From an uncultured Rheinheimera sp. (GTDB taxonomy: Bacteria > Pseudomonadota > Gammaproteobacteria > Enterobacterales > Alteromonadaceae): DNA of 64,000 nt. Location: positions 396 through 64,395 of the forward strand of contig CBINNO010000003.1 of NCBI GenBank assembly GCA_966252055.1. Reading direction: 5' to 3'. Below the pieces are notes generated by a model, which was not told the DNA's origin, ran no database searches, and was given only the letters and a program-made list of their open reading frames with translations. The translations under genes were made by a program, and so were the position numbers. This document shows positions 1 through 53,467 of this stretch, one piece after another; within the stretch, counting starts at the first letter, position 1; each line of letters starts with the position of its first letter.

Positions 1-2913
1 TGCTGCGATATTGCTCAGGCCGCTGATAGCGGTCTGTTCCAGGGCGATAGTCTGGAGCTGTGGAAAACTCTGACTGATATGGGCAAAACTGGCCTGTGTC
101 AGCGGGTTTGCCGACAGATTGAGATAGGTAAGCCCGGAATGACTGAAAGTTAACAGTGTACTGTCGGTGAGGCCCTGACCGCGCAGCATGACATTTTGTA
201 GTTTACTGAGCTGATTAAAGCCGGCCAGATTTTGGACCGCTTGTGCCAAAGTTGCGGTACCAGACACATTCACAGTGGTCAGGTTTGTCATATGGCTGAC
301 GCCTGCCCAGTCCAGAATATTGGCATTGCAGTACAGATAGGTCACGTTGGTAAAAGTGCCGTAGCCACTGTCGGTCAGGCATTTTCGTAAGGACGCATCC
401 GGCACTGTCGTGGCGTTGATTGCCAGCTGCCCGCAGCTGACCGGCAATATGAATCTGCTTTGATTGGCGTGGTTACGCAGGGTGTCAATCTGTGCGCAGT
501 CAATGGCAAGCTGACCTTGCAACTGCAGGCTTTGGAACTGACCGGCTGCTTTAATCAGCTCGCTGATATCTCTGACGACCGGGCTTTTGTTGGTTGTCAT
601 ATACAGGTACTGCAGGGTGTTTGGCACCGTGAAATCGGGGAATTTTACCGGCAGATTATTATCCTGCAGATTCAACCAGAACAGTTGTTGCAGGCTGCCG
701 AGCACGCTGTAGTCCGATAGGGCGCTGTTATTGTATAGCGACAGCATAGTCAGATTCGGCAATGCGCTCAGATGACTGATATCGGTCAGTGGTGTTGTTT
801 CAGCATACAGGTTTGTCAGGGCTGTTGGGTTTTGCAGCGCACTGACGACGGACGACAAACTGGTCAGTTTAGTCATGCTGAGGTTTAAGTAATTCAACTG
901 TGCTGACAGGCTGAGACCACTTAAACTGCCGATGTTGTGACCGCCAATATCCAGTGAGCGCAGATTCGGCAACTGGTTCAGGAAGGTGAAATTGTTCGCT
1001 TGTGTGCTGCGGATGTAGAGGTGCTGCAGCGTGGTGGCGCCGCTAAGCCAGCTGAAATCATTAATAGCATTAGAGCTCAGGGTCAGTTCCTGTAAGGTGC
1101 CAAGCAGTGGTTGCAGCACAGGGATGATGGCATTGGTCAGCTGATTTTGTCGCAGGTTTAATGCGCGCAGGGTGGCCGGATACTGAATATTGGCGGCGGA
1201 GTCCGTCAGCTGCTGCCCGGACAATTCCAGATCAGTCAGACTGCTGAGTTTTTCCAGTGGTTTGAGACTGCCCAGCCTCAGTTGCAATGCCCCTGGCGTG
1301 ATATCCAGCAGCTGCAGATTCTTCAGCTGTTCAATGCCGTCCAGTTGCTGCACATCCTGACAGCTCAGCTGCATGATATCTTCGACATAGGTGTCGGAAA
1401 AATCAGCGATACAGGCCTGTAACCGGCTGTCGGCGACCGTGATTTCTTCTGGCAATGTCTGAGTAACGCCACAACTGGCAGGCCTGCGTACTTGCGCGAC
1501 TTTGGATGCTATCTGGTCCAGCTCGTTGCATGGAATGCCGACCTGGCCTTGCAGGTCCAGTTCCTGCAAAGTGCCGGGCTGATTGATCAGGCCGGCAACA
1601 GATTTGATGCGGGCATAACTGTATGCCCACTGGGTGTATCTGGATAGATCCAGTATTTTTAACGATGCCGGCAGTACTAAGGTGCCCAGGTTGGCGCTGT
1701 TAGCGGTGTTAAACAGCCTCAGGCTGTAGAGCTTATTGAGTTTGCTGACAAAGCCGAGGTTGGTGATATTTGGTGTGCTGCCAATCACCAGGTGCATTAA
1801 GTTCGGCAGGCTCTCAATGGTCGCTTGATGGGCTGCGGTAAAATTTGCCCCATTCAGTGCCAGTGTCACTAACTGCTGGTGGTTGTTCAGTGCTGAGATA
1901 TCAATATCTTTGTGATTAAATTGCTCCAGTGTCAGGCTATTGAGTGCCGGTAACTGACTGATAAAATTGAGGTTGCTCAAATCATACAAATAAGCGTCAG
2001 CAATACCCGGATGGTTGAGCCCAGCGATAGCTGCCGGATTGCTGATATTCAGGAAGATACTGCGCAAGCCGCTGATTTGGTTCATCAATGCAACCATATC
2101 GGGCTTGTCACTGAGTTCATCATCGGAGTGGCGTAATGTCTCCAATTGATCAAGCGACGCCAGAATTTGCCAACCGGCAGTCACTTTTAAGCGGTGCAGG
2201 CTCAGGTGTTTCAACCCTGCAATATTGGATAAAAAGCTCAGGCTGCTGATTTGATATCTTTCTAAGGTCAAATCCCGTAAATGCGGCAGTTCAGTCAGTT
2301 CGCTGAGGCCACTGAGCGGTGAATTTGCGCTGGCGCCGCCGACATAAAACTGGCGCAGTTCAGTCAGCGCTTTCAGGCCGGTTAAATCACTGACCGCCGG
2401 TTGCTGATAATGATAAAAGCAATAAAGGCTGGTGATCTGGTCAACATACAAGAAACCGGCGCTATTGGCAGATTCAGTAAGACATTGTTTTAACTGGGGG
2501 TCGGTGAAATTCAGGCTGCTGAGCAAGACGCGGTCCTGCTGTGATGTGACAGTCAGCGCTTTGATCTTACCGGTCACAGAGGCTCTGGTCACACACTGAT
2601 CCGGCTTACCGCCGCTCAGCCGGCATTCGATTTGTTCGCCGGCAGCTGTCTGGTGGATGACGCGCCGCTCAGTGTGTTGCGTTTTAGTGGGGCTGACCGG
2701 AGGCTGCACCTTGGGGTAAGCATTCTGCAGCTCAATCGGCCTGCTGTCGGGCTTTGCTATTGTCGGTGCAAATGGAGACGGCAGGCCTGCCTTTCCACTG
2801 GCGAACAAAGGCGGTTGCTGCCCGGGCGTCAATGACTGTGGCGACTGCGCTTGCCGGGCCGTCGCGGTCAGAGACAGCAGTAAGAGGGAAACTGCCACAA
2901 CTTGCTTATTCAT
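1..2913 (-). CDS. Secreted multi-block internalin-like leucine-rich-repeat protein (3' end beyond left window edge, at least 971 aa)
   Basis: Missing from the ORF track because it has no stop in the window. Manual translation from ATG 2913 (SD AGGGAGG) gives signal peptide MNKQVVAVSLLLLSLTATA, Cys caps (FTDPQLKQCL, VADSRLQACI, VPDASLRKCL) and LxxLxLxxN repeats; the same frame still reads as LRR at base 1 (QLQTIALEQTAISGLSNIAA). Confidence 0.9.
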   Translation of the reverse strand, partial: MNKQVVAVSLLLLSLTATARQAQSPQSLTPGQQPPLFASGKAGLPSPFAPTIAKPDSRPIELQNAYPKVQPPVSPTKTQHTERRVIHQTAAGEQIECRLSGGKPDQCVTRASVTGKIKALTVTSQQDRVLLSSLNFTDPQLKQCLTESANSAGFLYVDQITSLYCFYHYQQPAVSDLTGLKALTELRQFYVGGASANSPLSGLSELTELPHLRDLTLERYQISSLSFLSNIAGLKHLSLHRLKVTAGWQILASLDQLETLRHSDDELSDKPDMVALMNQISGLRSIFLNISNPAAIAGLNHPGIADAYLYDLSNLNFISQLPALNSLTLEQFNHKDIDISALNNHQQLVTLALNGANFTAAHQATIESLPNLMHLVIGSTPNITNLGFVSKLNKLYSLRLFNTANSANLGTLVLPASLKILDLSRYTQWAYSYARIKSVAGLINQPGTLQELDLQGQVGIPCNELDQIASKVAQVRRPASCGVTQTLPEEITVADSRLQACIADFSDTYVEDIMQLSCQDVQQLDGIEQLKNLQLLDITPGALQLRLGSLKPLEKLSSLTDLELSGQQLTDSAANIQYPATLRALNLRQNQLTNAIIPVLQPLLGTLQELTLSSNAINDFSWLSGATTLQHLYIRSTQANNFTFLNQLPNLRSLDIGGHNIGSLSGLSLSAQLNYLNLSMTKLTSLSSVVSALQNPTALTNLYAETTPLTDISHLSALPNLTMLSLYNNSALSDYSVLGSLQQLFWLNLQDNNLPVKFPDFTVPNTLQYLYMTTNKSPVVRDISELIKAAGQFQSLQLQGQLAIDCAQIDTLRNHANQSRFILPVSCGQLAINATTVPDASLRKCLTDSGYGTFTNVTYLYCNANILDWAGVSHMTNLTTVNVSGTATLAQAVQNLAGFNQLSKLQNVMLRGQGLTDSTLLTFSHSGLTYLNLSANPLTQASFAHISQSFPQLQTIALEQTAISGLSNIAA

Positions 2914-3042
2914 GAAACCTCCCTGTCGCACGGGTTGAGACAGGCAGCGATGCCGTCAACAATGCGGTATCTTGCTGAAATGACCAAAGCTCCGGATAAA
3001 CGGAAGCTTCTGTTCCCTGTCGATGCATTCATGCGATGCGAC

Positions 3043-3108
3043 AATATAGAATGATTGCCGTGGTGTGCCTGCGACATTTTCCGGCGTTCGTGCGTCAATT
3101 TTGTGCAA
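3043..3108 (-). promoter_or_regulatory. Direct-repeat operator plus -10 box, copy A (upstream of LRR gene)
   Basis: Minus strand TTGCACAAAAT-TGACGC-N15-TGTCGCAGGC, then TATATT 22 nt after the second TGTCGC. Aligns with copies at 7520 and 10619. Confidence 0.7.
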
Positions 3109-3241
3109 CCGCAGTTTTTTTTGACGTGAGTTGCGATCGCATGCTGTATTTGTTCCTGAATTAGCAAGCGTCTGTATCCGTAGTCCCTGTTTGAATCATT
3201 GTCGGGTCAGGGCGGCGGTCAGCCTCGATGAGCGACACCCG

Positions 3242-6200
3242 TTATGCTCTGACGAGCTGCTGTTGTTTGCGATACTCAGCAGCGGTCGTTTGCAGCTGGC
3301 TGCTGAACTGACGCTGCATCGTTTTCACTGTGCCAAAACCACATTGTTCGCTGATCGACTCAATACTGGCGTGGGGCTGACTGGCCAGCAACTGGCAAGC
3401 TTGCTGCAGGCGGTAAGCGTTCAGCGCGTCAAGCACTGTCATCCCGATGGCGCTTTTGCACAAACGATTGAGTTGGGAGGTACTTTTATGAAAGTGGCTG
3501 GCCAGACTCTCTGCTTTGATGGTCGCATCCGGGTAGACGACCGCAAAGACGGCATCCAGTTTCAAGCGGAATGACTGATATTCATCGGCTGGCTGTCCGG
3601 CCGGCGTCAGCAGATTTTGGCGTACCCGGCTGGTCAGTTGCTGATATTGTCGCATGACGGCTGAGACGGCACTGAGTAACACTTTACCGCTGACCGCCTT
3701 GGTCAGGCAGAGGCTGGCCTGGATTTGATATCCCTGCAGCTGAATTTCTTCGCTTTGCAATGCTGTCAGCACAATGACAGGAATATGACTGGTTTGCATC
3801 TGAGATTTCAGTAGCTGGATTAACTTAAAACCGCTGTCCTGCTGTTCCATCATGACATCGGTCACTATAAGGTCTGGCAGGTGTGTGCTGGCAAGAGCAA
3901 AAGCACTGGCGACGTTTGCGGCGGTAAAACACTGATAGTGGGGTTGCAGCAGCGCCGCCAAATCTTCCCGCAATTGATCATTGTCTTCAACCAGCAGGAT
4001 GCTGCCGGCGGTCCCAGCCGAAGTCGCGGAAGCTTCCGGCAATGTCGGCCGGACAACTGGTACACAAGGCAACAGAGTGTCGAGGGGGCCTGCAGCGTTT
4101 GGAGTCGTCAGCTGCTGCTCGTCACCAAGTGGCAGACAAACGACAAACTGGCAACCCCGGCCAGGTTCACTGTGCAGGGTGACAGTACCGCCAGCGTCTT
4201 CGACGCAGGTTTTCACCAGAAACAGCCCTTCACCACTGCCGGGGATATTTTCCTGTCCGCTGATTCTGTAGTGACGCAGAAACACCAAAGGCTGTTCATG
4301 CGGCGCAATGCCCGGGCCGTAATCACGTACGGAAAAATAAAGTTTGTTTGCGCGGGCGGTCAGTTCAATCTCAATAGTGTTTCCATCGTGGCTGTACTTG
4401 ATGGCATTGCTCAACAGGTTTGCGGTGACAAGTTCCAGTACGCCGGGTTGACCATAAAACGCGACACTGGCCAGTTGTAACCGGATCTCCAGCTGCTTTT
4501 CGCGGGCGTAGGGCAGGTAGCGCTGCACTTCCTGTTCGACAATCGGCTGGGCGGCAAGGTGTTGTCCTTCGCTGCTATGTGCCAGCCGTAATGCTTCGGC
4601 TTCAAGATGACGCTGCAGCAGCTGATGCAGGTCCTGGCAAGCCAGACTGGCACGCTCCAGGCAGCGCTGCATAGCGGGTTGCTGTGAACTTGTATCCGGC
4701 TGCACTGTTGCCGCGCTGAGCTGTCCGGCCTGTTCGAGCTGCAAGCGTAATCGCATCAGCGGTGTTCTCATTTCGTGGGCAGTGAACTGAAACTGAAGTT
4801 TCAGATTACGTGCCAGTACCGACTCACGGGCGATACCCTGTTCAATCCGCAGTTGTTGTTGTCGCTCTGTGCGGTCGCGCAGCGCTTTGTAAGCCCACAG
4901 CAACAGAACTGCGGTCAGGATATAAATCGCATAAGCAGGCCCGCTGAGCAGCGGGTGTGGCCGGATTTCAAAACTGAATAAAGCCTGGGGTTCGCTCCAG
5001 TGACCGTCGGGGTTGGCTGCTTTGAGCCAGAACTGATACTGGCCGGCAGACAATGCCGGAAAGCGGGCGCTGCGTTCTGAAACATATTGCCAGTCTTGTT
5101 GGGTACCCGCCAGACGGTAGGCGTAGCGCATTCGCTCCGGTGCCGCATAGTGCAGGCCGGTAAACCGCAATGTCAGCGCGTTCTGCTGATAACTGAGGCT
5201 GGCGAACGAGTCCGTTGGCAATGCTTGCTGATCGTTGACCTCGATGCTGCGCAGTTGTAACGCTGGGACCGCTGTGTTGTCCTGCACATCCTGGGGCCTG
5301 AAGCCATTCACGCCATTAACTCCGCCAAAATAGAACCGGCCTGAGGGGCCAAGGTGAGACACGCTGTAGTTAAATTCGGTTGATTGCAGTCCGTCTGCCA
5401 GCTGGTAGTGACGGATTTGTCCGTTCGCGGGGGTGAAACTGAAGATGCCATGACTGGATGCACACCACAAACGACCATTGTTGTCGCCCATCACACTGTA
5501 AATGACTTCGGTTGGTAACCCCTGCCGAACGCCGTAACGCTGCCATTCCGGCGAACTGCCTTGCCGCCAGGTCAGCCGGTTCAGTCCGCTTTCACGGGTG
5601 GCTACCCAATAAGTCTCTGCCGATGTTTGCCAGACACCATGCACCCAGTCGTGTCCCAGCGAGTTTCGGTTTTGTGGTTGATGCCGGAATTGGGTCAGTT
5701 GCCCGCTGTCAGGTGCCAGCCGTAACAGTCCCTGCTCACTGGACAGCCACAAGGCCCGGTCCCACGCCTGATAGATTTGCCAGATGCTGTTGCCGGCGAA
5801 AGCCGGATATTGTTCGGCGGAATACCAGTGCCTGATGCTTTGCAGATCTGGGTCGGCGCAGCCAATGCCCTGATTTGTGGCGAGCCACAGACACTCATCA
5901 GTGGCCAGCAGACTCAGCACTTCAGGCTGGCCCTTTGCCGTGGATGGCAGCAGGCCTTGCAACGGCAATGGCCTGAATTGACGTTCGGGTTCATCGAGCC
6001 ACAGTAGCCCTAAGCTGGTAGCGAGCACCAACAGGCCCTGACGACTGCGGGTGATTTGATGGATAGCCATACCCTGATTCTTTTGCAGTGGTAATGCATA
6101 CATCTCAGTGGTTGCTGTCGGGGCGCCGTCCGGCCCGAGCCGTTGCTTTTTCAGCACGGCGTCGTGACCTGTCCACAACCACTGTTGGCCCTGGCGCTGC

Positions 6201-7354
6201 TCTTCGAAAATACTGCGCACCCCACGGCCACCGATCGATTGGTCGCTGGCGAAACGCGGTGGGTTATAGTGCCAGAACTTGCGTGCGGTGGGCACCCAGC
6301 GCAGCAGGCCCGACTGTGAAGCTGAGAGCAGGACTGTGCCATCCCGGGTCTGATATAAGGTATCTAACCGACCGGTCAGTTCCCGCATATCCACGCTCAT
6401 CGGGCTGAAAGTATCCTGCTTTGCGTTGTAGCGAAACACCTGAGTGCCAGTGCTGACCAGCAGTTCATTGGCGGTATCGAGCATGCTGGCGACGCTAAAA
6501 AAACGGTCGTTTTGCACGTCAAGCGCAAAGGATTTCAGGTCGTTGAGCCGGATCAGCCCATCGCCAAACAGCCAGTGTCGCCCTTGTTTGTCCTGATAAA
6601 AAATCCTGCCACCGCGCAGCGCCTCCACGGCAGTGGCCTGCCGGGTGCCATGCTGTCGCATGACAGGCGAACCCTGCAACATGGACGTGCTGAAGTAGAG
6701 GGTGCCATCGGCCAGCTGGGTCCAGTCAATCACCGGGTAGCCGGTCAATACCGCGGTAAATTGTTGCATCTGTGCCGACCAGCGGTACAAGCCATTATCT
6801 GTGGCGACATACAGCTGATCTTGTACCACCTTCAGGCGGTTGATCATTGAAAATGGCTGGTTGGCGGCGACCATGATCGGCTCAAATTGGTCGGTTTGGC
6901 TGTTGTAGCGCCAGACGCCATGAGCGGCAGCGGCCCAGATGGTCTCGCCAAATTCGAGCATTGGATAAAAATGCCGCAGCGACTTTTCGGTCGCGGTGTC
7001 GTCCCGCAGATAATTGGCAAAACGACCACCGCCCAGATGACGGCTGATGCCATTCCAGGTGCTGATCCACAGCACGCCCTGGCGGGTTTCCAGCAGCGCA
7101 TTGACATAGTTGTGCGTCAGGGAGTCGGCTCTGTCCAGCTCGCGCATAAAGGTTTCGCTCTGATAGCCGTCGAATCTGACCAGGCCGGTGCCGGTGCCCA
7201 GCCAGAGGTAACCTGATTTATCCTGCAAAACCGTCGCAACAGAGCCTTGCTGCAGGCTCAGTGGAAACTTGTTGAAGTCATGAGTTTGTGCTGTCGCCTG
7301 TTGACACAGCCAAAGGCAAAGAACACGGATGATAAAAAGCCAGGTACTGCGCAA
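3242..7354 (-). CDS. Hybrid two-component sensor-regulator (beta-propeller + Y_Y_Y sensor, TM, HisKA/HATPase, receiver, AraC HTH), 1370 aa
   Basis: Signal peptide; Reg_prop repeats (LWLGTGTGLVRFDG, LWISTWNGISR); Y_Y_Y (YAYRLAG...YQFWLKAAN); TM AYAIYILTAVLLLWAY; H-box AHEMRTPL; N/G boxes NLLSNAIKY, DYGPGI, GSGEGL; receiver ILLVEDN...DLIVTDVMM; AraC ISEQCGF...F...EYRK. TTG start. Confidence 0.95.
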   Translation of the reverse strand: MRSTWLFIIRVLCLWLCQQATAQTHDFNKFPLSLQQGSVATVLQDKSGYLWLGTGTGLVRFDGYQSETFMRELDRADSLTHNYVNALLETRQGVLWISTWNGISRHLGGGRFANYLRDDTATEKSLRHFYPMLEFGETIWAAAAHGVWRYNSQTDQFEPIMVAANQPFSMINRLKVVQDQLYVATDNGLYRWSAQMQQFTAVLTGYPVIDWTQLADGTLYFSTSMLQGSPVMRQHGTRQATAVEALRGGRIFYQDKQGRHWLFGDGLIRLNDLKSFALDVQNDRFFSVASMLDTANELLVSTGTQVFRYNAKQDTFSPMSVDMRELTGRLDTLYQTRDGTVLLSASQSGLLRWVPTARKFWHYNPPRFASDQSIGGRGVRSIFEEQRQGQQWLWTGHDAVLKKQRLGPDGAPTATTEMYALPLQKNQGMAIHQITRSRQGLLVLATSLGLLWLDEPERQFRPLPLQGLLPSTAKGQPEVLSLLATDECLWLATNQGIGCADPDLQSIRHWYSAEQYPAFAGNSIWQIYQAWDRALWLSSEQGLLRLAPDSGQLTQFRHQPQNRNSLGHDWVHGVWQTSAETYWVATRESGLNRLTWRQGSSPEWQRYGVRQGLPTEVIYSVMGDNNGRLWCASSHGIFSFTPANGQIRHYQLADGLQSTEFNYSVSHLGPSGRFYFGGVNGVNGFRPQDVQDNTAVPALQLRSIEVNDQQALPTDSFASLSYQQNALTLRFTGLHYAAPERMRYAYRLAGTQQDWQYVSERSARFPALSAGQYQFWLKAANPDGHWSEPQALFSFEIRPHPLLSGPAYAIYILTAVLLLWAYKALRDRTERQQQLRIEQGIARESVLARNLKLQFQFTAHEMRTPLMRLRLQLEQAGQLSAATVQPDTSSQQPAMQRCLERASLACQDLHQLLQRHLEAEALRLAHSSEGQHLAAQPIVEQEVQRYLPYAREKQLEIRLQLASVAFYGQPGVLELVTANLLSNAIKYSHDGNTIEIELTARANKLYFSVRDYGPGIAPHEQPLVFLRHYRISGQENIPGSGEGLFLVKTCVEDAGGTVTLHSEPGRGCQFVVCLPLGDEQQLTTPNAAGPLDTLLPCVPVVRPTLPEASATSAGTAGSILLVEDNDQLREDLAALLQPHYQCFTAANVASAFALASTHLPDLIVTDVMMEQQDSGFKLIQLLKSQMQTSHIPVIVLTALQSEEIQLQGYQIQASLCLTKAVSGKVLLSAVSAVMRQYQQLTSRVRQNLLTPAGQPADEYQSFRLKLDAVFAVVYPDATIKAESLASHFHKSTSQLNRLCKSAIGMTVLDALNAYRLQQACQLLASQPHASIESISEQCGFGTVKTMQRQFSSQLQTTAAEYRKQQQLVRA

Positions 7355-7519
7355 AGTGGTTCACGTCCGTTGTAGAACTCATCATTTTAAATGTGCCAGA
7401 ACTGTCATAGCGCTGGCAAGGGGTTCAGGAGCCGCTGCCAGCACAGTGGTGGTCAGGTCAGCGGATTCAGGGACAGGCGTCCCGAATACGATTCCAGCTT
7501 TGCAATCGGGGTCTGTGTC

Positions 7520-7584
7520 TTGCGCAATTCTGTCCCTTGGATGCCGCTTTTTGTCGCAGCCATCAGTTTGTTCAGTGGTACATT
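7520..7584 (+). promoter_or_regulatory. Direct-repeat operator plus extended -10 box, copy B (upstream of 7739-10466 operon)
   Basis: TTGCGCAATTC-TGTCCC(7531)-N15-TGTCGCAGCC(7552), then TGG-TACATT (7579-7584) 21 nt after the second hexamer. Confidence 0.7.
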
Positions 7585-7738
7585 AAAGCCACGGCGAAAA
7601 GTCAAATCTGCCGGTCATGTCCGCATAAAAATGCAGCCGGAATGAGATGAGTAGTGAGATGTGCATTGTGCGCCAGGCCGGTCCTGTCGCATTGCTTTAT
7701 TGTCATGTTGCCGGCGCCAGCAAGAAAGGGAGACTCGT

Positions 7739-8452
7739 GTGCGAATCAGCGCAATCAACAGCTTTTGCGTTTTACTGGTTGCTGTACTGTTCAGTCAGGA
7801 CTTACTGGCTGAATCTGTTCAGGTAAAAAGCCGTGTCGACGGCCCCGGCATGCTGGAGCCCGCGCTGGCGGTGGTTGAACCGGGCGAGGCACTGCATTTG
7901 TTGATCAAGCCGGAGCCCGGTTACCGGCTGCGGCAAATATCCGGTTGCAACGGTCAGTATCAGGCCGGCATTTTTATTGTTGAGAACCCCAAATACAGCT
8001 GTGTGGTGGAGGCCAGTTTTGTGCCGGACGATGCCAGACTGGTTTCGCCAGCCCCGACACAAACCACGGGCAGCTCTGTCATCCAACAAACGCAAAATCC
8101 GGGGGCGCTGGCAACCGCCAAGACCGCCAAAAAAGCCGGCCGGATGCTGAAGTTTATTCTGGTGGCAAACCAGGTCATGCAACAGGTCAGCGTGACCAGC
8201 CGGGTGATTGCGGGCCTCGGTACCGTGCTGCCTGCGGTGCAACAGCTGCAAAAAAATCAACCGGCCACAGTCGTCGCAACGCCGGCCGCTGGTTATGCCA
8301 TTCAAAGCATATCGGGCTGCGGTCAACAAAGCGCCATCAGCCCGCTGCTGATCCCGTCTGTCAGCGCCAATTGCGTGGTCGACGTGATTTTTGTCCAGCT
8401 GAAAAATGCCCTGTGGGACCAATTTAACTGGGATCAGGCGACCTGGGGTTAG
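7739..8452 (+). CDS. Secreted protein with two divergent InlB B-repeat-like beta domains and C-terminal LWDQFNWDQATWG motif (237 aa)
   Basis: GTG 7739 after AAGGGAG; signal peptide MRISAINSFCVLLVAVLFSQDLLA; two repeats of PxPGYxxxxISGC...CVVEASF/CVVDVIF; paralogue at 26819. Confidence 0.85.
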   Translation: MRISAINSFCVLLVAVLFSQDLLAESVQVKSRVDGPGMLEPALAVVEPGEALHLLIKPEPGYRLRQISGCNGQYQAGIFIVENPKYSCVVEASFVPDDARLVSPAPTQTTGSSVIQQTQNPGALATAKTAKKAGRMLKFILVANQVMQQVSVTSRVIAGLGTVLPAVQQLQKNQPATVVATPAAGYAIQSISGCGQQSAISPLLIPSVSANCVVDVIFVQLKNALWDQFNWDQATWG

Positions 8453-8506
8453 TCCCCGGTCTGCTCAGTCAGGCAACTGCATGTTCAAACAAAAGCTGCG
8501 TCCAGC

Positions 8507-8530
8507 GGTGTGCCGGCCTGCCGGCACACC
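8507..8530. other. Perfect intergenic inverted repeat (stem-loop)
   Basis: GGTGTGCCGG-CCTG-CCGGCACACC, 10-bp stem and no U-tract. More likely an mRNA-stabilising or processing hairpin inside the operon than a terminator. Confidence 0.55.
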
Positions 8531-8579
8531 ACAATGACTGGCAGCACAGCAAAGCGCAGAAAAAAGGAAGATATCAACG

Positions 8580-10466
8580 ATGACATACTGGGTAAAAAAG
8601 CTGGTTCTCGCTTTGGCTGTGACGGCTCCGGTCGCGCATGCCGCCAATCTGGTGCAGTTCAGTGCCGGCCAGCCAGCCAAAGCGGCGGAAGTGAATGCCA
8701 ATTTTAAAGCGCTGAATGATGAGTTGGCAGCCGCCAAAAATTTCAGCGACCTGACCGAGGCCCAAATCCAGGCGCTGAAAAATGCGGTCGGCGCCGGCGG
8801 GGTCATTGACGGGCTGCAGGTTGATTGTACCGAAGACCCGGCGGCTCTGGTCAATGTGATAGAGACTAAAGGCAGGCATAACCAGTTTATGCGCGTCACT
8901 ATTAAAGGTGACTGCCATGCAGTGATGACTACGCAGTTCCACGGCTTTAATCTGTTTATCAATGGCGATGAAGCGGGCGCCCGTCTGATCCCCGATCCTG
9001 ACGCGGTGCAAAAGTGGAATTTGCTGGGTGGTTTTAACGGCGGTCTCTATCTCAATAATCTGACGTTGTTGCCGCCATCTGACGCCGATGCCGTGCTGTT
9101 TTCCCGGTCGTCACAGGGCTCGTTGACCAATGTGACGATTGAAGGAGGCAGTAATGGCGTCGTAGTGCAGGCGACAGCGCAGGTCTATCTGACCAATGTC
9201 AAAATACGCAACACCAGCCAGACAGGCATCTCAGCTTATACCGGCGGTTCGCTGCGATTCACCGGCAACAGCGACAACAGTGCGCTGATTGAGACCCACT
9301 CAGGAATTGGCCTGTTAGTCGATCTGGCGGGCGCCAGTATGGCGAACACTGAAATTAAAGCGCCAGTCGCTTTGGAATTGCGTAACGGCGGAACCTTAGC
9401 AGTCAACTTTGGCCGTCAACTGATCCTGCAGGGCAGTACCAGAATGTTTACCGGCGGTCAGCTGAGTGCGCAGGATATCGCTGTGACGGGGTCAATTCTG
9501 ATGCGGCAGGCCTCGTTGTTTGCTGACAGAGCCACCATTGTCGGTAACACCCGGTTGTTCGATGGCGCACAGTTTACGGTCCTGAGTGGCTCCATGCGGG
9601 CAACGGACCCACCATCAGCAAATTACGATGAGCATATGGTACTGGAAGTATCGGGCGGTTCTCAGGCGACTTTAGGCCGGCATGCGACTCAGATGCAGCT
9701 CGATGTGACCGGCTATTTGGTATTGAACAATGCCCGGGTTTCAGCGCTGTGGACCCAGCTGAATACTGATTTAAACATGGAAGCTTCGTCATTTTCGATG
9801 GAAAAATCTAACTTTCTCGGGCTTGCGCGCGACGCCAACAATCCCTACCAGGCCAATCTGAGCAGTAACTCAACCTGGCGACTGTTTCAGTCCAATGTTT
9901 CGGCAGGCAAAGTGTTGCTGATGCAAAGCACTTTGAATATCGATGGCGAGAGCGGCAACAATAACTACGGTAATACCGCCAACACCTACTTCCAGCTGGC
10001 GATGGGCAGTTCGTTGAGAGCCGCCAATTGCAAAGGTAACAGTTACTTTAATCTGGAAGGCAGCAGTTTGCAGTTACTGGATTGTGATTTCACTGAATCC
10101 GTGGTGTCGGCACATACTGGCAGTAAAGCCCGGATTGACCGTTCGAAGATTGGCCTGGTGCATGTGGATGGCGGCAGTACCGCGGGTTTCTACCAGTCAA
10201 AACTGACAGGCGCAGGATTTACCGACTGGGGCGACCAAAATTACAACATCGGCGCCAATTCTATGATGTATCTGGATGGCTCATCGCTGACCGTGACCAA
10301 ACATTTTAACAACAACGGCGTGCTGCGTTTGCAAAATGCCAGCGTGGATATGAAAAACTCCACAGTGCAATGTTATGCAAACCGCGGCTTTATTGAATGG
10401 TGGTCCGCCACGGCTGCCAGCACTATCGGTGTGCTGAGCGGCTGTAATTCTGCCCCGGCACCTTAG
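8580..10466 (+). CDS. Secreted parallel beta-helix (pectin-lyase-fold-like) protein with N-terminal FSAGQPAKAAEVNANF motif, 628 aa
   Basis: SD AAGGAAG; signal peptide ending AHA; short coiled coil, then G/S/N-rich repeats (LTNVTIEGGSNGVVV, LTNVKIRNTSQTGISA) typical of right-handed beta-helices. Confidence 0.75.
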   Translation: MTYWVKKLVLALAVTAPVAHAANLVQFSAGQPAKAAEVNANFKALNDELAAAKNFSDLTEAQIQALKNAVGAGGVIDGLQVDCTEDPAALVNVIETKGRHNQFMRVTIKGDCHAVMTTQFHGFNLFINGDEAGARLIPDPDAVQKWNLLGGFNGGLYLNNLTLLPPSDADAVLFSRSSQGSLTNVTIEGGSNGVVVQATAQVYLTNVKIRNTSQTGISAYTGGSLRFTGNSDNSALIETHSGIGLLVDLAGASMANTEIKAPVALELRNGGTLAVNFGRQLILQGSTRMFTGGQLSAQDIAVTGSILMRQASLFADRATIVGNTRLFDGAQFTVLSGSMRATDPPSANYDEHMVLEVSGGSQATLGRHATQMQLDVTGYLVLNNARVSALWTQLNTDLNMEASSFSMEKSNFLGLARDANNPYQANLSSNSTWRLFQSNVSAGKVLLMQSTLNIDGESGNNNYGNTANTYFQLAMGSSLRAANCKGNSYFNLEGSSLQLLDCDFTESVVSAHTGSKARIDRSKIGLVHVDGGSTAGFYQSKLTGAGFTDWGDQNYNIGANSMMYLDGSSLTVTKHFNNNGVLRLQNASVDMKNSTVQCYANRGFIEWWSATAASTIGVLSGCNSAPAP

Positions 10467-10515
10467 CCAATCCACAGCCAACCACCGGTTGCCCTGCAGC
10501 CACAAGCAATCCCGC

Positions 10516-10537
10516 CATGGGCCTGTAAAGGCCCATG
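10516..10537 (+). terminator. Probable terminator or stabilising hairpin after 10466
   Basis: CATGGGCCT-GTAA-AGGCCCATG, 9-bp stem with GNRA loop; weak U-tract. Confidence 0.45.
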
Positions 10538-10618
10538 CATCTTCTGTACGGCTGTGCGTTTCGGCTATAGGGCCGATGTCGTCAGCAGTTGCACGACGAC
10601 GGGGCTGCAGCGCGCATC

Positions 10619-10683
10619 TTGCACAAAACTGTCGCCATCAGGCACGGATTTGTCGCAGCCGGAAACAGGTGGAATGTTAAATT
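10619..10683 (+). promoter_or_regulatory. Direct-repeat operator plus extended -10 box, copy C (upstream of lipase-SLH gene)
   Basis: TTGCACAAAAC-TGTCGC(10630)-N15-TGTCGCAGCC(10651), then TGT-TAAATT (10678-10683) 21 nt after the second hexamer. Confidence 0.7.
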
Positions 10684-10846
10684 AATGAGTGACTTACCTG
10701 AGTTGCTGTGGATTGCGCTATTCACAACAAGACGGGGACTTTCTGACTTTTCCCACGAAGTAACGCAACGGATGAGCTCAACTATGTCTGCGACTAACAA
10801 GAGTTTTCGTTTTACTGAATGTGCCCGATATGGCACACGGAACCCT

Positions 10847-13800
10847 ATGGGTATCACACACTTTTTTTTAAACGCGATCTTGTGGGTTTCACTGTTTCTC
10901 AGTGCATCGGTGCACGCGTCTTCAGTCAAAAATTTCCGAACCGACCTGATGTGTCCGGAAAATTTCCATGAGCAGTCTAATTTTCATTACGACGCGCAGG
11001 CCGCGAAGGTGCTTGCCGAATTCGCCCGGGATGTCTACGTCATTAAAAGCGAACAAACGTTAGCACAAAGCAAACTGGCGTTGGAAAAGCTGATGAATGG
11101 CCGCTATGCAAACGCATTGGTGCTGAACAGCCAAGATTTACAAGGTGATATGCAGGCTTTCGTCTGGGAAAATGATGACAAAATAATTGTATCTGTAAAA
11201 GGAACTGATGAGCTGATCGATTGGGAGTTTAATCTGACAAATTACAGAGTCCCGTTGAGCGTAGAAAACAAGAGCGTACCGGGAGTTCAGGTTCATATGG
11301 GTTTTAATTTTTATGCGGATCGACTCATTGAATTACTTCAAGCAACACAGCAAGGGCAACAGATACTCAACAGAATTTTGCTTTCTGAAAAAGATGTTTT
11401 TCTGACTGGTCACAGCCTCGGTGGCGCTGTCGTAACCTTGTTGGCGGCGAAATTTCGGGAAATGGGGGTGTCAAAGGGACGGCTGCAAGTTTATACCTTC
11501 GGAGCACCTGCAGTCGGTGACGATGCATTTGTAAGTCGTTACGAACCCTACTTTGCCACAGGCTTTAATATTTTCCGCGTGAGGAATCAGGATGATGTAG
11601 TCCCTTATGTCACTTACCTGGATATAGACAAACTCACAATCTCACGCTGTGCAGCGACATCCTTTAAGCCTGGTCATCCGGCGGCAAACTTTGTCAGATG
11701 CCTGGCAGGCAAGACTGCCATGTCGGTGTTTAAACATCGGTTCGAACAAATTGGTTTTCTGCGCGCTCACTCATCTGCAGTCGCGAATTACGGACAACAG
11801 TTGGATGCCCGGCAATCAACTGTGTTAAGACCTACGGACTGGAACGTGCTGAACATGCTGACCTCAGATCGGGTGTTTGAGGTCTTTGCCGAACATAGCA
11901 GTGTTTTATACGCCAGCCATGTGGCGCAGAATCATCAATTAAGCACAGCACCCGCCTGCAATATTGATGGAAGCGTCCAGCGCGCTCAACAAGCTTACGT
12001 ACCGACCGTTTTTCATTTTGGTCTGACCCGTTTGAAAAACAGCGAGGTGAAGCTCAGTGCGCCAGTCACGTTGCAAGCCGAATCTGCCACTTATGGTTCA
12101 ATGCGTATTAAACTCGGGCTACCACCATTAAAAGGCCTTTTTGTGACGACCACAAAAACAGTGGATCTGACAGGCGCGGGTATCGTGATTGAGGTCAAAG
12201 ATAAAGCCACTGGCAAAAAGTTTTACCGCCGTGATTTTACCGTGAGCGCAGCGACCTCGGATGAGCCATTACTGCCAGAATTTTTACCAGATAATTTGCC
12301 ACAGAGTTTTTATACCGAACGCACCGGTCAGCAGGATTTTGTTTTACAGATCACTGCATTCAATACCAAACATCTATTTGATAACGGCTCAGACACTTTT
12401 CACTGGCAGCAAGACATTCATCTGGAAGCAGATGACGTGGACTACTTGTGGCAATACCAGCCAACCCGCTTACGGTTTCAGGACAGCAGCAAAACGGACT
12501 GGGACAGCAGCCAACACATGCTGTCATTGCAACAAGGCGAAAAATTCTCAGTTTGTTTAAGCAACAGTCCGCGCCAACTGACTCAGGTCACCAATATCCA
12601 GTTAGTGGTTGATGTTGTCGGTGCGGGCAGAAGGATTACTTTTCAAGCGCCGAGCTATGATGATGCGACCGGTTGCATGGAGTTTACCGCCAGCGAAACG
12701 GGCAGATTTAAGTTGATCCGGGTGGATGCTGAGGTGTTTCGGGATGATTTAAATCAGTCTGTGTACACGACCTTGGATTATTTTTATAGGGGCTATGTTT
12801 CTGTTACGGGTTCGTTTCAGCAAGGGGTTGGCAAACTCCTTTTTCGTGATGACTTTAATGGCGCTGAGCGAGGTCCAAATCCGGAGCATTGGATTGCTTC
12901 AGGATATGATGTGGTTGTGTCTAATGGTCATTTAGGAATGTATGCCAATGTCACCGATAATACAGGTAGAGTTAAAAGTAAAATTTCAATTCCATCTGGA
13001 AAAATCAAGGTGACTATTAAGCATTATATGTCACCTGGGGGGAGTTATTTCTTTCCGAAATTATCTTTAGGTCTTAAGAATGGAACATATTTAGGTGCTA
13101 TGTTTATGAAATCAGATTATTTTGCAGATAATTGTGGGGATTATGGAAATGCAAATAAAATCTCGATTTATACATCTGAGAGTCACTGTAATTTTTATTA
13201 TGCAGTAAATTCTTCTGACTTTTACAATAAATGGGTGGAAACAACTCTTATATTCGATCCGGCAACAGGTCTGATACAGTTAGATCTCGGAAATGATAAG
13301 TCAATCGATTTTGAGGTAACTTTGTCGCCGGAGTATCGGGCGGATGTCGACCATATCTACATGGATGGATATGGATGGTGGACATTTCATCAGCATCTAA
13401 TTGACTGGATCACTGTAGAGGCAGGCTCGGAGTATGATAGTAGCATACCGACAACCACCTTCCTCTCCGAAAACCTGCCCGATGGCACTTATCAGCTGGG
13501 GGCCGCTACCAAACGCTGGCGTTTTAAAACAGCCGATGTGGCTGTTGCTGGCTTAAAAGCCGTGCGGGTCAGTGCGGATGCGGCGCTTGGTATTCAAACT
13601 GCCGAAATTCCGTTGGGCGATGTCGCGGCTAACAGCGAGTTTCTGGTCGAGTTGCCGCTGCAGGTTAGCCGTGGCAATCAGGCGGTGGCGCGTTCGGTGT
13701 GGAAATTGGTTGATGGTACTGGTAAAGACGTGCAGATCAGCAACAGTAAAACCAATACCTTCTGGCTGTCGCTGCGGACAAACAGGCCTCCCCAGTTTGC

Positions 13801-15634
13801 CGCCTTGCAAAAAACGGCACTGGGCGGTGAGGTCGGCAATCTGTTGCAATTACCTTTACAGGCGACAGATGCTGACGGCGACGCCCTGACTTTTTCAGTG
13901 GTATTCGGCGGTGGCAGCATTATTGATAAAGTCAGCCGCGTGAGCAACAAAGCCTGGCAGGGTAGCTTTGCGCAGGCGGGGGTACAGCCGCTACAGCTGG
14001 CCGTTTCGGACGGGCTGGAGCAGGATCTGATCAATATCGATGCGGTGATTTACACCGGTAGTGGTCTGGCGAACTTTTTTGCCGATGTGCAATATCCGGG
14101 CACTGACGATATCAACAGCGTTTACAGTGCCGTGCACTTCCTGGCTGGCAAAGGCATTGTGATGGGCGCATCGACACAGGCGGGTGAGCGATATTTTGAA
14201 CCTGCGCGCGCAGCCACTCAGGCGGAAGCTTTAAAAATGTTGTTGCTGGCAGCGCAGGAGCGTGGCTTTGTCCAGCTGCAGCAAGCTCCCTATATTCCTG
14301 AGCATTATCAGAACCAGATCAGCCAGAACGGCCAGCTGTTCGACTACAGCTGGGCGGCTGACTATGCCTACACAGCAGAGCAACTGGGCATGGTTGATAA
14401 CCTGCAGTTGTTCGAACCGGCGGCTTTGCTTAGCCGTGAACAGGCCGCGTACTGGCTGGAACAGTTGCTGGAACTGGAATCCCCGCTGGCGGTGCTCAAA
14501 GCGCGTGGTCTGACCGATCGTTATCAATTCAGCGATGCAACAGCTTTTGCGCAGCCAGCGCATTATCAGGCCGCTTTAAAAACGGCGTTGTTCGGTTACC
14601 TCGGGACTTTGGGACAGAATTTCCGGCCGGCAGATCCGATCAACCGCGGCGACTTTGCGGTGATTGCGGCCCGGGTGCTGCGCACGGCCACTGTTGTTGG
14701 CCTGACCAGCCAGCAAGTGCAGCTTGCCGAGCGCTTTGGCCAGCAGATGCCGGTGGTGAAGCACGGGCAAACGCTGCAAATCAATGGCGTGACCGGTTTG
14801 GCGGTGTCTGAAATTTCGCAGCAGGGCCAGCTGATTAAAGAGGAATGGCTGGACCCGGCGCAAAGCTACGTCAGAATTGGCATCACACTGGATGATGGTA
14901 CTGCACTCGGGACAGCCCGGATGATTGATCAGCTGGCGTCTAAGCCATTGCTGCTTAATACCAATAACCTGCAACTGACCCGCAGCAGCATGATTAATTT
15001 GATTGTGCTGCTGGAAAATACCCGTTCAGGCGTAATTAGCGCACAGTATTTGCCGCTGGCACTCGATTTTGCCGACAAAGACGGTGATGGACGCCGCGAT
15101 GATGTGGACGCTTTTCCAGAGGATAACAGGTACAGCCGTGACGCCAATAAAAATGGTGTGCCTGATGAAGTTGAAGATTTGTTGCGCGAGCTCGGCATTG
15201 ACGGAACTGCCAAGGCGACGGTCAATGGGGTGGCACAAAGTTATAGCCTGGCCTATGCCATCGCTTTTGGCCTGGCTTACGACAGAACCACGACAGGATT
15301 GCCGCAGGATAAAACGGCTCCGGTGATTCAGTTGCCGCCTGTATTGACCATTCAGACACCACACAGCGACGGCTTGCCAGCGACAAACTGGCAGCTGGCA
15401 AATTATCTGGCTGCGGTAAAGGCTGTGGATAATCTGGATTTGCATGTCAAGCTGAGCCATGACGCCCCGGCCCGCTTTGCCATAGGCCAGACCTTGCTGA
15501 CGTTCACCGCGACAGATCAGGCCGGCAATATTTCTAAAGCCACCGCCACCGTCACGCTGGAGCTGGTTGCGGCCAAACCGCGCAAATCAAGGATGATGAA
15601 AATTATCTTGCTGAGCCAACCGCAGTCGCCATAA
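10847..15634 (+). CDS. Large secreted class-3 lipase / NBR1-Ig-like / cadherin-like / 3xSLH / TSP3-like / HYR mosaic protein (about 1595 aa)
   Basis: Start moved to ATG 10847 (signal MGITHFFLNAILWVSLFLSASVHA). Lipase_3 motifs VHMGF, FLTGHSLGG, YTFGAPAVG, NQDDVVP, EHSSVLY. NBR1-like FLSENLPDGT...TKRWRF. QATDADGDALTFS. SLH-like FADV...FEPARAATQAE, FEPAALLSREQ, FRPADPINRGD. DKDGDGRRDDVDAFP. HYR DKTAPVI...TFTATDQAGN. Confidence 0.85.
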   Translation: MGITHFFLNAILWVSLFLSASVHASSVKNFRTDLMCPENFHEQSNFHYDAQAAKVLAEFARDVYVIKSEQTLAQSKLALEKLMNGRYANALVLNSQDLQGDMQAFVWENDDKIIVSVKGTDELIDWEFNLTNYRVPLSVENKSVPGVQVHMGFNFYADRLIELLQATQQGQQILNRILLSEKDVFLTGHSLGGAVVTLLAAKFREMGVSKGRLQVYTFGAPAVGDDAFVSRYEPYFATGFNIFRVRNQDDVVPYVTYLDIDKLTISRCAATSFKPGHPAANFVRCLAGKTAMSVFKHRFEQIGFLRAHSSAVANYGQQLDARQSTVLRPTDWNVLNMLTSDRVFEVFAEHSSVLYASHVAQNHQLSTAPACNIDGSVQRAQQAYVPTVFHFGLTRLKNSEVKLSAPVTLQAESATYGSMRIKLGLPPLKGLFVTTTKTVDLTGAGIVIEVKDKATGKKFYRRDFTVSAATSDEPLLPEFLPDNLPQSFYTERTGQQDFVLQITAFNTKHLFDNGSDTFHWQQDIHLEADDVDYLWQYQPTRLRFQDSSKTDWDSSQHMLSLQQGEKFSVCLSNSPRQLTQVTNIQLVVDVVGAGRRITFQAPSYDDATGCMEFTASETGRFKLIRVDAEVFRDDLNQSVYTTLDYFYRGYVSVTGSFQQGVGKLLFRDDFNGAERGPNPEHWIASGYDVVVSNGHLGMYANVTDNTGRVKSKISIPSGKIKVTIKHYMSPGGSYFFPKLSLGLKNGTYLGAMFMKSDYFADNCGDYGNANKISIYTSESHCNFYYAVNSSDFYNKWVETTLIFDPATGLIQLDLGNDKSIDFEVTLSPEYRADVDHIYMDGYGWWTFHQHLIDWITVEAGSEYDSSIPTTTFLSENLPDGTYQLGAATKRWRFKTADVAVAGLKAVRVSADAALGIQTAEIPLGDVAANSEFLVELPLQVSRGNQAVARSVWKLVDGTGKDVQISNSKTNTFWLSLRTNRPPQFAALQKTALGGEVGNLLQLPLQATDADGDALTFSVVFGGGSIIDKVSRVSNKAWQGSFAQAGVQPLQLAVSDGLEQDLINIDAVIYTGSGLANFFADVQYPGTDDINSVYSAVHFLAGKGIVMGASTQAGERYFEPARAATQAEALKMLLLAAQERGFVQLQQAPYIPEHYQNQISQNGQLFDYSWAADYAYTAEQLGMVDNLQLFEPAALLSREQAAYWLEQLLELESPLAVLKARGLTDRYQFSDATAFAQPAHYQAALKTALFGYLGTLGQNFRPADPINRGDFAVIAARVLRTATVVGLTSQQVQLAERFGQQMPVVKHGQTLQINGVTGLAVSEISQQGQLIKEEWLDPAQSYVRIGITLDDGTALGTARMIDQLASKPLLLNTNNLQLTRSSMINLIVLLENTRSGVISAQYLPLALDFADKDGDGRRDDVDAFPEDNRYSRDANKNGVPDEVEDLLRELGIDGTAKATVNGVAQSYSLAYAIAFGLAYDRTTTGLPQDKTAPVIQLPPVLTIQTPHSDGLPATNWQLANYLAAVKAVDNLDLHVKLSHDAPARFAIGQTLLTFTATDQAGNISKATATVTLELVAAKPRKSRMMKIILLSQPQSP

Positions 15635-22479: not shown

Positions 22480-22716
22480 CACGCGGTGAACTCCCTGTAC
22501 ATTAGTTTTTGTCCTCAGGTTTTGTCTGCTGGTTGCCCGGATGGCCCTGCTGAAAACACGGGCAGGAACAGGCCCCATGCCCACATTGTTGCTGTTTGAG
22601 AAACGTCCGTCAAAGCTTTTGTCTACTGCCAAAACGACCTTCAAAAAACCTTGCACAACCCCTGAACAAAGCCGCCAGCCGGGTGCATGACGCATCCCGG
22701 CGCCCGTTCAGGCTGC

Positions 22717-25700: not shown

Positions 25701-25842
25701 GCGACTGATTGTCTGCACCTGTGCTTTGCTGGCCGAATGATGTGTCCTGCGCCGGTGTGATTTGCCAGAGTGTCTGACTGGCCCAGACACTCTGGCTGAC
25801 GACCGCCAGCCACATTATTGTCCCAGATAAAAATTTCAGCAT
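22717..25842 (-). CDS. Secreted M12B/reprolysin-like zinc metalloprotease fused to LRR block and three HYR-like domains (about 1041 aa)
   Basis: Start moved to ATG 25842 (SD AAAAGGAG; MLKFLSGTIMWLAVVSQSVWA). Pro-region; metzincin HEAGHNMGLAHS with Met-turn FATVMAY; LRR cap VTDPVLKQCL; DTTAPV...ATD repeats. Confidence 0.9.
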   Translation of the reverse strand: MLKFLSGTIMWLAVVSQSVWASQTLWQITPAQDTSFGQQSTGADNQSLAERHLQAQQQGLSLNLDLSAIDAVQPAESVQLALPGGPVAVQITTVKQYTKEIVSLSGYIRQDGEQYPVVITRGPKGFFARIVSADGTYVVRGMHSEARLFSEATLQQDLDFSQDDALVPPELKKQPQANEQVQAGETYPPLTDESIATIDFLMLYSPAAAAIYNGDIATRLYHLVSVSNQIYRDSGVFVEMRLAAMREVALSATESHAQLDEMTDKTGAFADLDKWRYEAGADMVALLTPMTSANICGLGWYATGPNNGGFSYNKNYMVSLTHITCSDYVLAHEAGHNMGLAHSERQGDTGYSMPFARGYGVDRSFATVMAYESYFSASKIYQFSNPAKQCKGQPCGIDRHDEHGADATYAINAIRHGLARQYQPGNLVTFSDALLQVTDPVLKQCLQQIKSANPTMHYAGQLTEFGTYSYGNNCAGLGSISSLAGLEQFSNISRLYLSGQNISDFSPLASLRQLQDVTLSGTASIALSWLANLPELTALTLYNYTLNDLTPLAALPALRELELQYTKIASYQPLSQLSNLRVLYISHHYQSPDNLQQATWLSGMNNLTNLTITTSNLSDLNPLSSLVNLTHLQIGSSVPLTVDGLSTLTRLQYVYLSQASQLDCDSAYRTWRALIPLRSFQLPSRCKSGDTTAPVFAALPIITMEATGPQTKAVLTAPTATDAKDGSIPAWSTATGSYAVGDHQIDWRATDFDNNTAVAYQTLRVQDTTAPVINGPDVSVATAYSTAGITSDSYEFYQFIEQFTVADLVTANIDVSFSNQSPWAAGAHLLTLSATDQAGNSTSRTVYMLVNFAYGPKFTVPAAVTLPAPGPDGLSLSDSRVQQLISQLKAHDYFANQPLTIRQVHTPARLKPGKNILLFEATDQNGYTSAASLVIYLTDQSAPVIQVPAPLQLKAGRSGIARTDPRIQQFLNSVTASDNFDSSVVVSHDAPEKFLPGVTVVHFSSTDSSGNQATAQSSVEILLNKKDSRLLQLLLMAQPQQ

Positions 25843-26156
25843 GATGCAGACTCCTTTTAATATGCCGGAACTGCTGCGCCTGTCAGCGCCGGTTCTGGTG
25901 GGCGAAAGCCCCTCAAACCCACTGGTGCAGCAGAGAAATACAGGCTTATGCTCGCTTATTTGTCTGTTGTTGTCATCTGATAAACAGTGGCCGCCGCGAC
26001 AGCGCAGATTCTGAGTGACAAGCATGGCAAAATCGGCGAGCATTCGCCGGCGTTGCGGGCCGTTTGGCCGCCTTATCTGCCCGGGTTGGGGCAGGCAATG
26101 GTGCTTGGCAGGTGGCCGCAATGGCAGAGCTGACATTGTATGACAGGGAGCTGAGG

Positions 26157-53450: not shown

Positions 53451-53467
53451 CTGTACAACTTCTATGG

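Follow-up and report, generated by a model that had tools for sequence, protein, structure and literature searches.

The window analysed here is a stretch of 64,000 nucleotides (nt) of DNA from an uncultured Rheinheimera sp. of the Gammaproteobacteria (GenBank assembly GCA_966252055.1, contig CBINNO010000003.1, positions 396 to 64,395 of the forward strand). Near one end it carries a gene for a hybrid two-component system (the sensor), a protein predicted to join sensor kinase, receiver and AraC-type DNA-binding domain. The sensor gene is flanked on one side by a gene for a large secreted leucine-rich-repeat (LRR) protein and on the other by genes for a small secreted protein, a possible beta-helix protein and a lipase with an SLH domain. 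Three intergenic spacers at this locus contain the same direct-repeat site followed by a -10-like hexamer. This three-copy operator is confirmed as real, statistically clear and phylogenetically footprinted. Judged by sequence, the three sites are probably operators of the adjacent sensor, which would activate the three promoters as a class II activator.

The composite TTGCRCAA-N3-TGNCNC-N15-TGTCGCAGSC occurs in the window only at operators A, B and C (Table 1), even when up to three mismatches are allowed. The site sequences quoted in an earlier, preliminary description of this DNA were found exactly as given (minus strand 3108-3043; plus strand 7520-7584 and 10619-10683). As that description had stated, all three sites are intergenic and point toward the gene downstream (the LRR, small secreted protein and lipase starts). 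They all lie no more than 8 kb from the sensor gene. In the form used for the window search, TTGCRCAANNNTGNCNC-N15-TGTCGCAGSC, the pattern gave three matches in total, against none in 100 dinucleotide-preserving shuffles. The signal resides in the composite arrangement because its single parts are not enriched (TGTCGCAG alone was seen 7 times with 3.7 expected, TTGCRCAA alone 9 times with 14.5 expected).

The same three sites stand out when both strands of the entire window are scanned with a 17-bp half-site position-weight matrix in two copies placed 20-22 bp apart. They score 34.5-40.5 bits and the next-best match, which lies within a coding region, scores 16.2 bits, leaving a gap of about 18 bits; in simulated sequences the best score had a mean of 9.6 bits and a maximum of 23. 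Half-site spacings of 20 or 22 bp gave no better matches than 21 bp, and the scan found no site above background upstream of the PPC-domain gene (15831). Comparison with background frequency, a check proposed in the preliminary description, favours the motif both by shuffling and by score.

Each site consists of two bipartite half-sites (WTGC-N7-TGWCGC) in direct repeat with a 21-bp period, the TGNCNC and TGTCGC cores of each site lying 21 bp apart. A half-site is laid out as W-T-G-C, about four variable bases, an A/T-rich stretch and then T-G-(T/A)-C-G-C. A conserved TAnAnT hexamer follows 21-22 nt downstream of the proximal half-site, and the gaps of 22, 21 and 21 nt in the preliminary description agree when they are counted from the proximal TGTCGC. 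Assuming that transcription starts about 7 nt past the hexamer, the operator occupies approximately -72 to -35, and the proximal half-site adjoins the -35 region relative to these predicted starts. The sequences at the -35 position (AGGCAC, AGCCAT and AGCCGG) are unlike TTGACA, and none of the three promoters passes a scan for the sigma-70 -35/-10 consensus, which found no usable -35 box. By its sequence, this direct-repeat, bipartite layout abutting the -35 position is typical of an AraC/XylS class II activator operator.

Between the -10 box and the start codon lie 130-164 nt, a little less than the 155-190 nt given in the preliminary description. The predicted 5' untranslated regions (UTRs) are long (about 123-157 nt; 2913-3042 on the minus strand, 7585-7738 and 10684-10846 on the plus strand). 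No k-mer of 7 or more is shared across all three, and Rfam gave no family matches in the 5' UTRs or the sites and no detectable RNA gene in the window. A terminator-like hairpin ahead of operator C is consistent with the lipase gene having its own promoter.

The sensor shows Pfam matches to Reg_prop (7.9e-14), Y_Y_Y (1e-11), HATPase_c (3.4e-22), Response_reg (3.1e-16) and HTH_18 (3.1e-16), and also to HTH_AraC. Its N-terminus is hydrophobic and resembles a signal peptide (MRSTWLFIIRVLCLWLCQQATA), and a transmembrane-like segment follows the Y_Y_Y domain. The Pfam HisKA model stayed below its threshold on the sensor; alignment with other hybrid systems places its H-box, FTAHEMRTPL, and its N-box, NLLSNAIKY, opposite theirs. 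The receiver has its Asp in TDVM and the SHIP latch residues are present. The closest solved structure (12aw, E = 4.6e-23) is the REC-DBD part, that is, the receiver and DNA-binding domain, of a "hybrid two-component system protein". By these alignments the sensor is a complete AraC-type hybrid two-component system with its phospho-accepting His and Asp intact.

Close relatives of the sensor are scarce in the protein database: P0002 (82 % identity), P0003 (46 %) and P0004 (38 %). For the other relatives, identity is no higher than 34 % in local alignments and 22-30 % in those that include most of the protein; those with names come mainly from Bacteroidota. The close relatives are encoded on contigs L003 (82 %), L004 (46 %) and L005-L008 (38 %), with G+C contents of 57, 48 and 44 %, respectively, and on all of these contigs the sensor gene is followed by an LRR gene. 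The spacer between the two genes reads TTGCACAAAAGTGACGC-N4-ACGCCGGAAATTGTCGC-N22-TATAGT in L003, ATGCACAATTTTGTCGC-N4-ATGCGCAAAGATGACGC-N22-TATGTT in L004 and TTGCTCGTTTTTGTCGC-N4-ATGCATGAAAATGACGC-N22-TATAGA in L005. The preliminary description had suggested looking for conservation upstream of orthologues, and the operator and -10 box are indeed found in the sensor-LRR spacer at 82, 46 and 38 % identity. L003 also has operator B ahead of its orthologue of the small secreted protein gene, with motif positions intact, spacer positions changed and flanks diverged. In pairwise alignment with L003, the block of operator and -10 box is the best-conserved island in both spacers; parts of the LRR 5' UTR are conserved as well.

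The matrix used to scan L004 and L005 was trained on the three window sites only in order to avoid circularity, and its scores were compared with a null of 200 simulations. It ranks the site in the sensor-LRR spacer first in all of L004 (35.7 bits versus a null maximum of 23.2) and first in all of L005 (31.2 bits versus 21.0), and both top sites have TAnnnT 22 nt downstream. Across the eight sites from the four lineages, the spacing is exactly 21 bp in 8/8, and the A at hexamer position 2 is invariant in all eight. In the stack of 16 half-sites, G3, C4, T12, G13 and C15 never vary and G16 and C17 hardly do, with variable positions between them. An extended -10 TG is present at B and C of the window, at operator B of L003 and at operator A of L005. 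On the protein side, the stretches KSxSQLNR and CGFGxxKTxQRQ, which cover recognition-helix positions, are invariant in the four orthologues and different in all other hybrid systems aligned. The sensor is the sole DNA-binding protein common to the compared neighbourhoods.

Table 1. Operators, promoter elements and genes of the sensor locus (window coordinates; aa, amino acids)
Feature	Position	Strand	Remarks
Operator A	3067-3108	-	Distal half-site 3108-3088 (TTGCACAAAATTGACGC...), proximal half-site 3087-3067 (ACGCCGGAAAATGTCGC...); upstream of LRR gene; kept in L003, L004 and L005
-10-like hexamer A, TATATT	3043-3048	-	22 nt past proximal TGTCGC; predicted start near 3036
Operator B	7520-7561	+	Half-sites 7520-7540 and 7541-7561; upstream of small secreted protein/beta-helix operon, divergent from sensor gene; kept in L003
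-10-like hexamer B, TACATT	7579-7584	+	21 nt past TGTCGC; extended -10 TG at 7576-7577; predicted start near 7591
Operator C	10619-10660	+	Half-sites 10619-10639 and 10640-10660; upstream of lipase-SLH gene
-10-like hexamer C, TAAATT	10678-10683	+	21 nt past TGTCGC; extended -10 TG at 10675-10676; predicted start near 10690
Hybrid two-component system (sensor), proposed activator	3242-7354	-	1370 aa; Reg_prop propellers, Y_Y_Y, HATPase_c, receiver, AraC-type helix-turn-helix
Sigma-70-like promoter candidate for sensor gene, ATGACA-16-AATGAT	7381-7408	-	Block conserved in L003
Putative target 1, large secreted LRR protein	1-2913	-	ATG 2913; first 971 aa, gene runs past window edge; follows sensor gene in 4/4 lineages
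Putative target 2a, secreted protein	7739-8452	+	GTG 7739; 237 aa; "W-motif" protein of the preliminary description; no family match; orthologues in L003 and L004
Putative target 2b	8580-10466	+	628 aa; weak Beta_helix match (23.1 bits, under Pfam cut-off 25.9)
Terminator-like hairpin	10516-10537	+	Between beta-helix gene and operator C
Putative target 3, class-3 lipase with SLH domain	10847-15634	+	ATG 10847; about 1595 aa; Pfam

For the small secreted protein, the GTG at 7739 is preferred over 7661 because of a GGGAG ribosome-binding site and the aligned start in L003. Its gene is probably in one operon with the beta-helix gene. No match to a SusC/SusD or TonB-dependent receptor family was found among the 33 open reading frame translations scanned with Pfam. 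The locus thus differs from a polysaccharide utilisation locus, which has a SusC/SusD pair and glycan-degrading enzymes under the regulator; a PL14 lyase lies 18 kb away and has no operator site. The conserved core target across the four lineages is the LRR gene, and the local "regulon" consists of three promoters in the lineage of the window. About 30 nt before operator B, a block of 12 nt (ACGTCCCGAATA; 7478-7490, plus strand) is shared without change by the window and L003, in a spacer that has otherwise diverged with large indels. Such conservation may mark a second site of regulation in the region that controls the divergent sensor gene and operon.

The sensor-LRR module lies within a polysaccharide biosynthesis island in both of two distant lineages, those of the window and of L005. 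In the window, positions 26801-49655 contain glycosyltransferase (GT) genes of families GT4, GT2 and GT1, the PL14 lyase gene (28869-29666), GDSL and AlgX-like genes, and export genes like KpsC/S/D/M/T. In L005, GT genes, a UDP-glucose dehydrogenase gene and a PL14 lyase gene stand beside the sensor gene (1-5652 and 20536-24197). This setting suggests that the ligand of the sensor could be a fragment of the polysaccharide made by the island.

The stretch at 19786-26235 (minus strand) encodes two further large secreted proteins: one is an LRR protein, the other a reprolysin-type metallopeptidase carrying LRR and HYR domains. Within the capsule/glycosyltransferase cluster, a 316-aa open reading frame (39622-40572, minus strand) matches Pfam Glyco_transf_29, a eukaryote-type sialyltransferase family, with E = 3.3e-10 and 40.3 bits against a cut-off of 23. 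Proteins resembling GT29 are uncommon in bacteria. The minus strand at 52128-60919 encodes a type I polyketide synthase of 2483 aa with a single module (KS-AT-DH-ER-KR-ACP) and, after it, an enzyme of the class I/II aminotransferase fold, dependent on pyridoxal phosphate. A sulfatase-family gene (50412-51965) adjoins this pair. The pairing of polyketide synthase and aminotransferase may, as a guess, serve amino-lipid or sphingolipid-like synthesis.

Further copies of the operator were sought outside the window. A strict pattern was scanned over GTDB with one genome per species, a set in which the source genome is absent. Its two matches, L001 and L002 (from Thermoguttaceae and Oscillospiraceae), were taken as chance, the proximal half of L001 scoring 1.3 bits and L002 falling under the dimer threshold. 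A relaxed pattern, WTGC-N7-TGWCGC-N4-A-N-GC-N7-TGWCGC, scanned over a metagenome collection, returned 111 stretches, nearly all of them matches in G+C-rich coding sequence or 21-bp tandem repeats of no relation; the sensor and LRR genes are present only in L119, a member of the L005 lineage. Among the stretches caught were exact 21-bp tandem arrays, such as ACGCGAAAATTTGTCGCATGA repeated at least three times among small open reading frames in L117 (about 8880-8940, minus strand), with others in L048/L072, L083 and L086. These arrays look like iterons of plasmid or phage replicons, unrelated to the sensor, and they show that 21-periodic patterns in general will catch such sequences.

This DNA occurs in public metagenome runs of rhizosphere, freshwater, soil and wastewater origin. 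The RNA evidence comes from assembled Logan contigs of low, few-fold depth and without strand information, from libraries labelled ambiguously "METAGENOMIC RNA-Seq". In four small runs (X20, X25, X26 and X27), contigs span the LRR gene and the operon at 7601-10433; those of X20 also cover parts of the lipase gene and of the second LRR/reprolysin operon. The sensor gene is uncovered in these four runs, save for one 151-base contig of X25 that overlaps the stop codon by 1 base, and the capsule cluster has no contig coverage in X20. In the spacer with operator B, the most upstream contig end in X20 is at 7601, 17 nt past the hexamer, and none of the four runs extends upstream of 7601; among the contig ends, this one alone is suggestive of a predicted start. 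Inside the small secreted protein gene, an X20 contig connects 7825 to 7975 on the opposite strand and is missing 2 bases at 7958; the join is probably a chimeric or fold-back artefact of assembly or library preparation.

The identification of the sensor as regulator of the three promoters, made in the preliminary description, is supported by the complete AraC-type architecture, the geometry of the sites, a site that travels with the sensor gene and recognition helices specific to its clade. In the mechanism proposed here, binding by the sensor, the sign of activation, the start sites and the ligand are all inferred. The periplasmic propeller and Y_Y_Y region would detect a ligand, which by analogy with Bacteroides systems is probably an oligosaccharide. 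The kinase would then phosphorylate the built-in receiver, leading to release of the C-terminal AraC-type domain. A membrane-anchored dimer may place its two DNA-binding domains on the two tandem 21-bp half-sites, and the two helix-turn-helix units would divide between them the boxes of each half-site, which lie one helical turn apart: one would read WTGC (box A), the other TGWCGC (box B). Because the promoters have a good -10 box (often extended) and no -35 box, the bound sensor would recruit RNA polymerase, with the proximal half-site ending at about -35, as in class II activation. The predicted outputs are the large secreted LRR protein, the small secreted protein and beta-helix operon, and the lipase-SLH protein.

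A number of observations weigh against activation of these promoters by the sensor. The window-only matrix found no convincing site in L004 ahead of the orthologue of the small secreted protein gene, and in L005 the site ahead of a divergent S8 peptidase gene is weaker, at 20 bits versus a null maximum of 21. No distal member of the regulon was found in the scans of GTDB representatives (without the source genome) or of metagenomes. In X15, a larger run of the same study as the four small ones, a contig (7505-7714) runs across operator B. The LRR contigs reach no further than 2954, which leaves about 80 nt up to the predicted start. The second LRR/reprolysin operon, although no operator precedes it, is covered in X20 about as deeply as the putative regulon genes, so that co-representation in the RNA-labelled runs is nonspecific. 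Given this, the X15 contig, the short LRR contigs, the few-fold depth and the lack of strand information, the RNA contig data are weak as support and compatible with the model. In addition, BT4124, the sole Bacteroides hybrid system tested as a constitutively active variant, repressed its targets (PMC13292587).

The alternative that survives best, though it is unlikely, is that a different AraC/XylS-type regulator encoded elsewhere binds the sites and that the sensor is a mere neighbour or is itself co-regulated. AraC-family paralogues are usually numerous. However, in all four lineages, which reach down to 38 % identity and range in G+C from 56 % to 44 %, the operator is found beside the sensor gene whereas the remaining neighbours differ, and no other DNA-binding protein is encoded in any shared neighbourhood. 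Residues of the recognition helices are, moreover, conserved specifically in the clade of the sensor.

It is less probable still that the sensor binds the sites and represses or modulates the promoters. This possibility draws on BT4124R-AD, which down-regulated genes bearing its tandem half-sites (PMC13292587). At the window promoters, however, the operator lies wholly upstream of the -10 box and leaves the -10 and +1 positions free, and the promoters, which lack a -35 box, are laid out like activator-dependent class II promoters, XylS/Pm among them. Contigs of the putative targets also appear in RNA-labelled runs with hardly any coverage of the sensor gene, an observation that does not settle the sign of regulation.

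The three promoters lie no more than 8 kb apart and TGTCGC is imaginable as an upstream promoter element, so that local duplication or an alternative sigma factor is conceivable, but a duplicated promoter remnant, a small repeat element or a -35-like element of an alternative sigma factor is very improbable and was rejected: only motif positions are shared, with spacer and flanking positions differing freely and nothing in common between the 5' UTRs; the same positions are kept in loci down to 38 % protein identity; the core box is itself repeated 21 bp upstream; no Rfam family matches; and the 21-22 nt between the end of the core box and the -10 box exceed the distance expected of a sigma -35 element.

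With the sensor as the probable activator, the conserved sensor-LRR module of these uncultured, probably proteobacterial lineages can be read more broadly, in a way that is tentative and rather doubtful as a whole. A Bacteroides-style glycan-sensing hybrid kinase in a capsule/exopolysaccharide island might directly switch on LRR, lipase and beta-helix surface proteins, not catabolism, as part of a glycan-triggered programme of adhesion or of interaction with host or prey. Divergence to 38 % elsewhere in the protein would have left the operator and recognition helices unchanged. What the system does biologically is hinted at by its conserved LRR target. The joint conservation of operator and recognition helices across such deep divergence makes the clade well suited to studying how AraC-type helices read DNA in hybrid systems. 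For a clade of hybrid systems outside Bacteroidota, the locus offers an operator that is concrete and can be tested: two copies of WTGC-N7-TGWCGC at a period of 21 bp, ending at about -35. As to the new operator and regulon claimed in the preliminary description, the operator is a new one of a known type and involves no new principle, and no members beyond the three local promoters were found. The regulatory principle is a textbook one, and the finding contributes an example, not a concept, tidy and useful rather than surprising.

The layout of the sites has well-studied counterparts. AraC of Escherichia coli binds direct-repeat half-sites with a 21-bp period at araI1-araI2 of pBAD, where the proximal half-site overlaps the -35 region of an activator-dependent promoter. 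The window sites share the 21-bp period of direct repeats and, relative to their predicted starts, would have the proximal half-site at about -35. AraC differs in that it loops the DNA to the distal O2 site and needs CRP, and nothing alike was seen in the window. At the Pm promoter of the Pseudomonas putida TOL plasmid, the proximal site of XylS also reportedly overlaps the -35 region (González-Pérez et al. 2002). Window and Pm sites both consist of direct-repeat half-sites, with the same box A (TGC[A]) and box spacing. XylS is a soluble, effector-binding protein with the box B sequence GGTA, whereas the window sensor is a predicted membrane sensor kinase fusion with the box B sequence TGWCGC, and its activation would presumably occur via phosphorylation-dependent release of the DNA-binding domain. 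At Pm, each of two 15-bp direct repeats has TGCA (box A) on its 5' side and, after a gap of 6 bp, GGTA (box B) on its 3' side, and a single AraC-type domain reads both boxes with its two recognition helices (PMC5481539).

The hybrid systems of Bacteroides are the closest in architecture. Ravcheev and coworkers predicted motifs for 16 Bacteroides (B. thetaiotaomicron) hybrid systems in 2013; each motif was a direct repeat in which two conserved sites lay on average 21 bp apart, and binding by a dimer was deduced (PMC3878776). The same survey called the AraC-type hybrid family unique to Bacteroidota (PMC3878776). Receiver-helix-turn-helix fragments of BT4124 and BT4663 bind such promoters, BT4663 by electrophoretic mobility shift assay (PMC11253607), and BT4124 has been footprinted on tandem half-sites (PMC13292587). 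The window sensor resembles these systems in its order of propeller/Y_Y_Y, kinase, receiver and AraC-type helix-turn-helix, in half-site pairs about 21 bp apart and in promoters adjoining the regulator gene. It differs in its half-site sequence, WTGC-N7-TGWCGC, and in a protein identity of only 22-30 % to named Bacteroidota hybrid systems. The host is evidently not a member of Bacteroidota and has TAnAnT -10 boxes of sigma-70 type, strong Shine-Dalgarno sites and a Kps-type capsule cluster, the KpsC of which has its best named matches in Gamma- and Betaproteobacteria (53-60 %). By promoter style, Shine-Dalgarno sites and these KpsC matches it is probably a proteobacterium; no obvious marker gene was seen in the window. 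Full-text literature searches found no reports tying hybrid two-component systems to LRR targets. Unlike the targets of the Bacteroides systems, those proposed here include no SusC/SusD or glycoside hydrolase, and the hybrid system of the window would instead be wired to secreted LRR, beta-helix and lipase-SLH proteins rather than to a polysaccharide utilisation locus.

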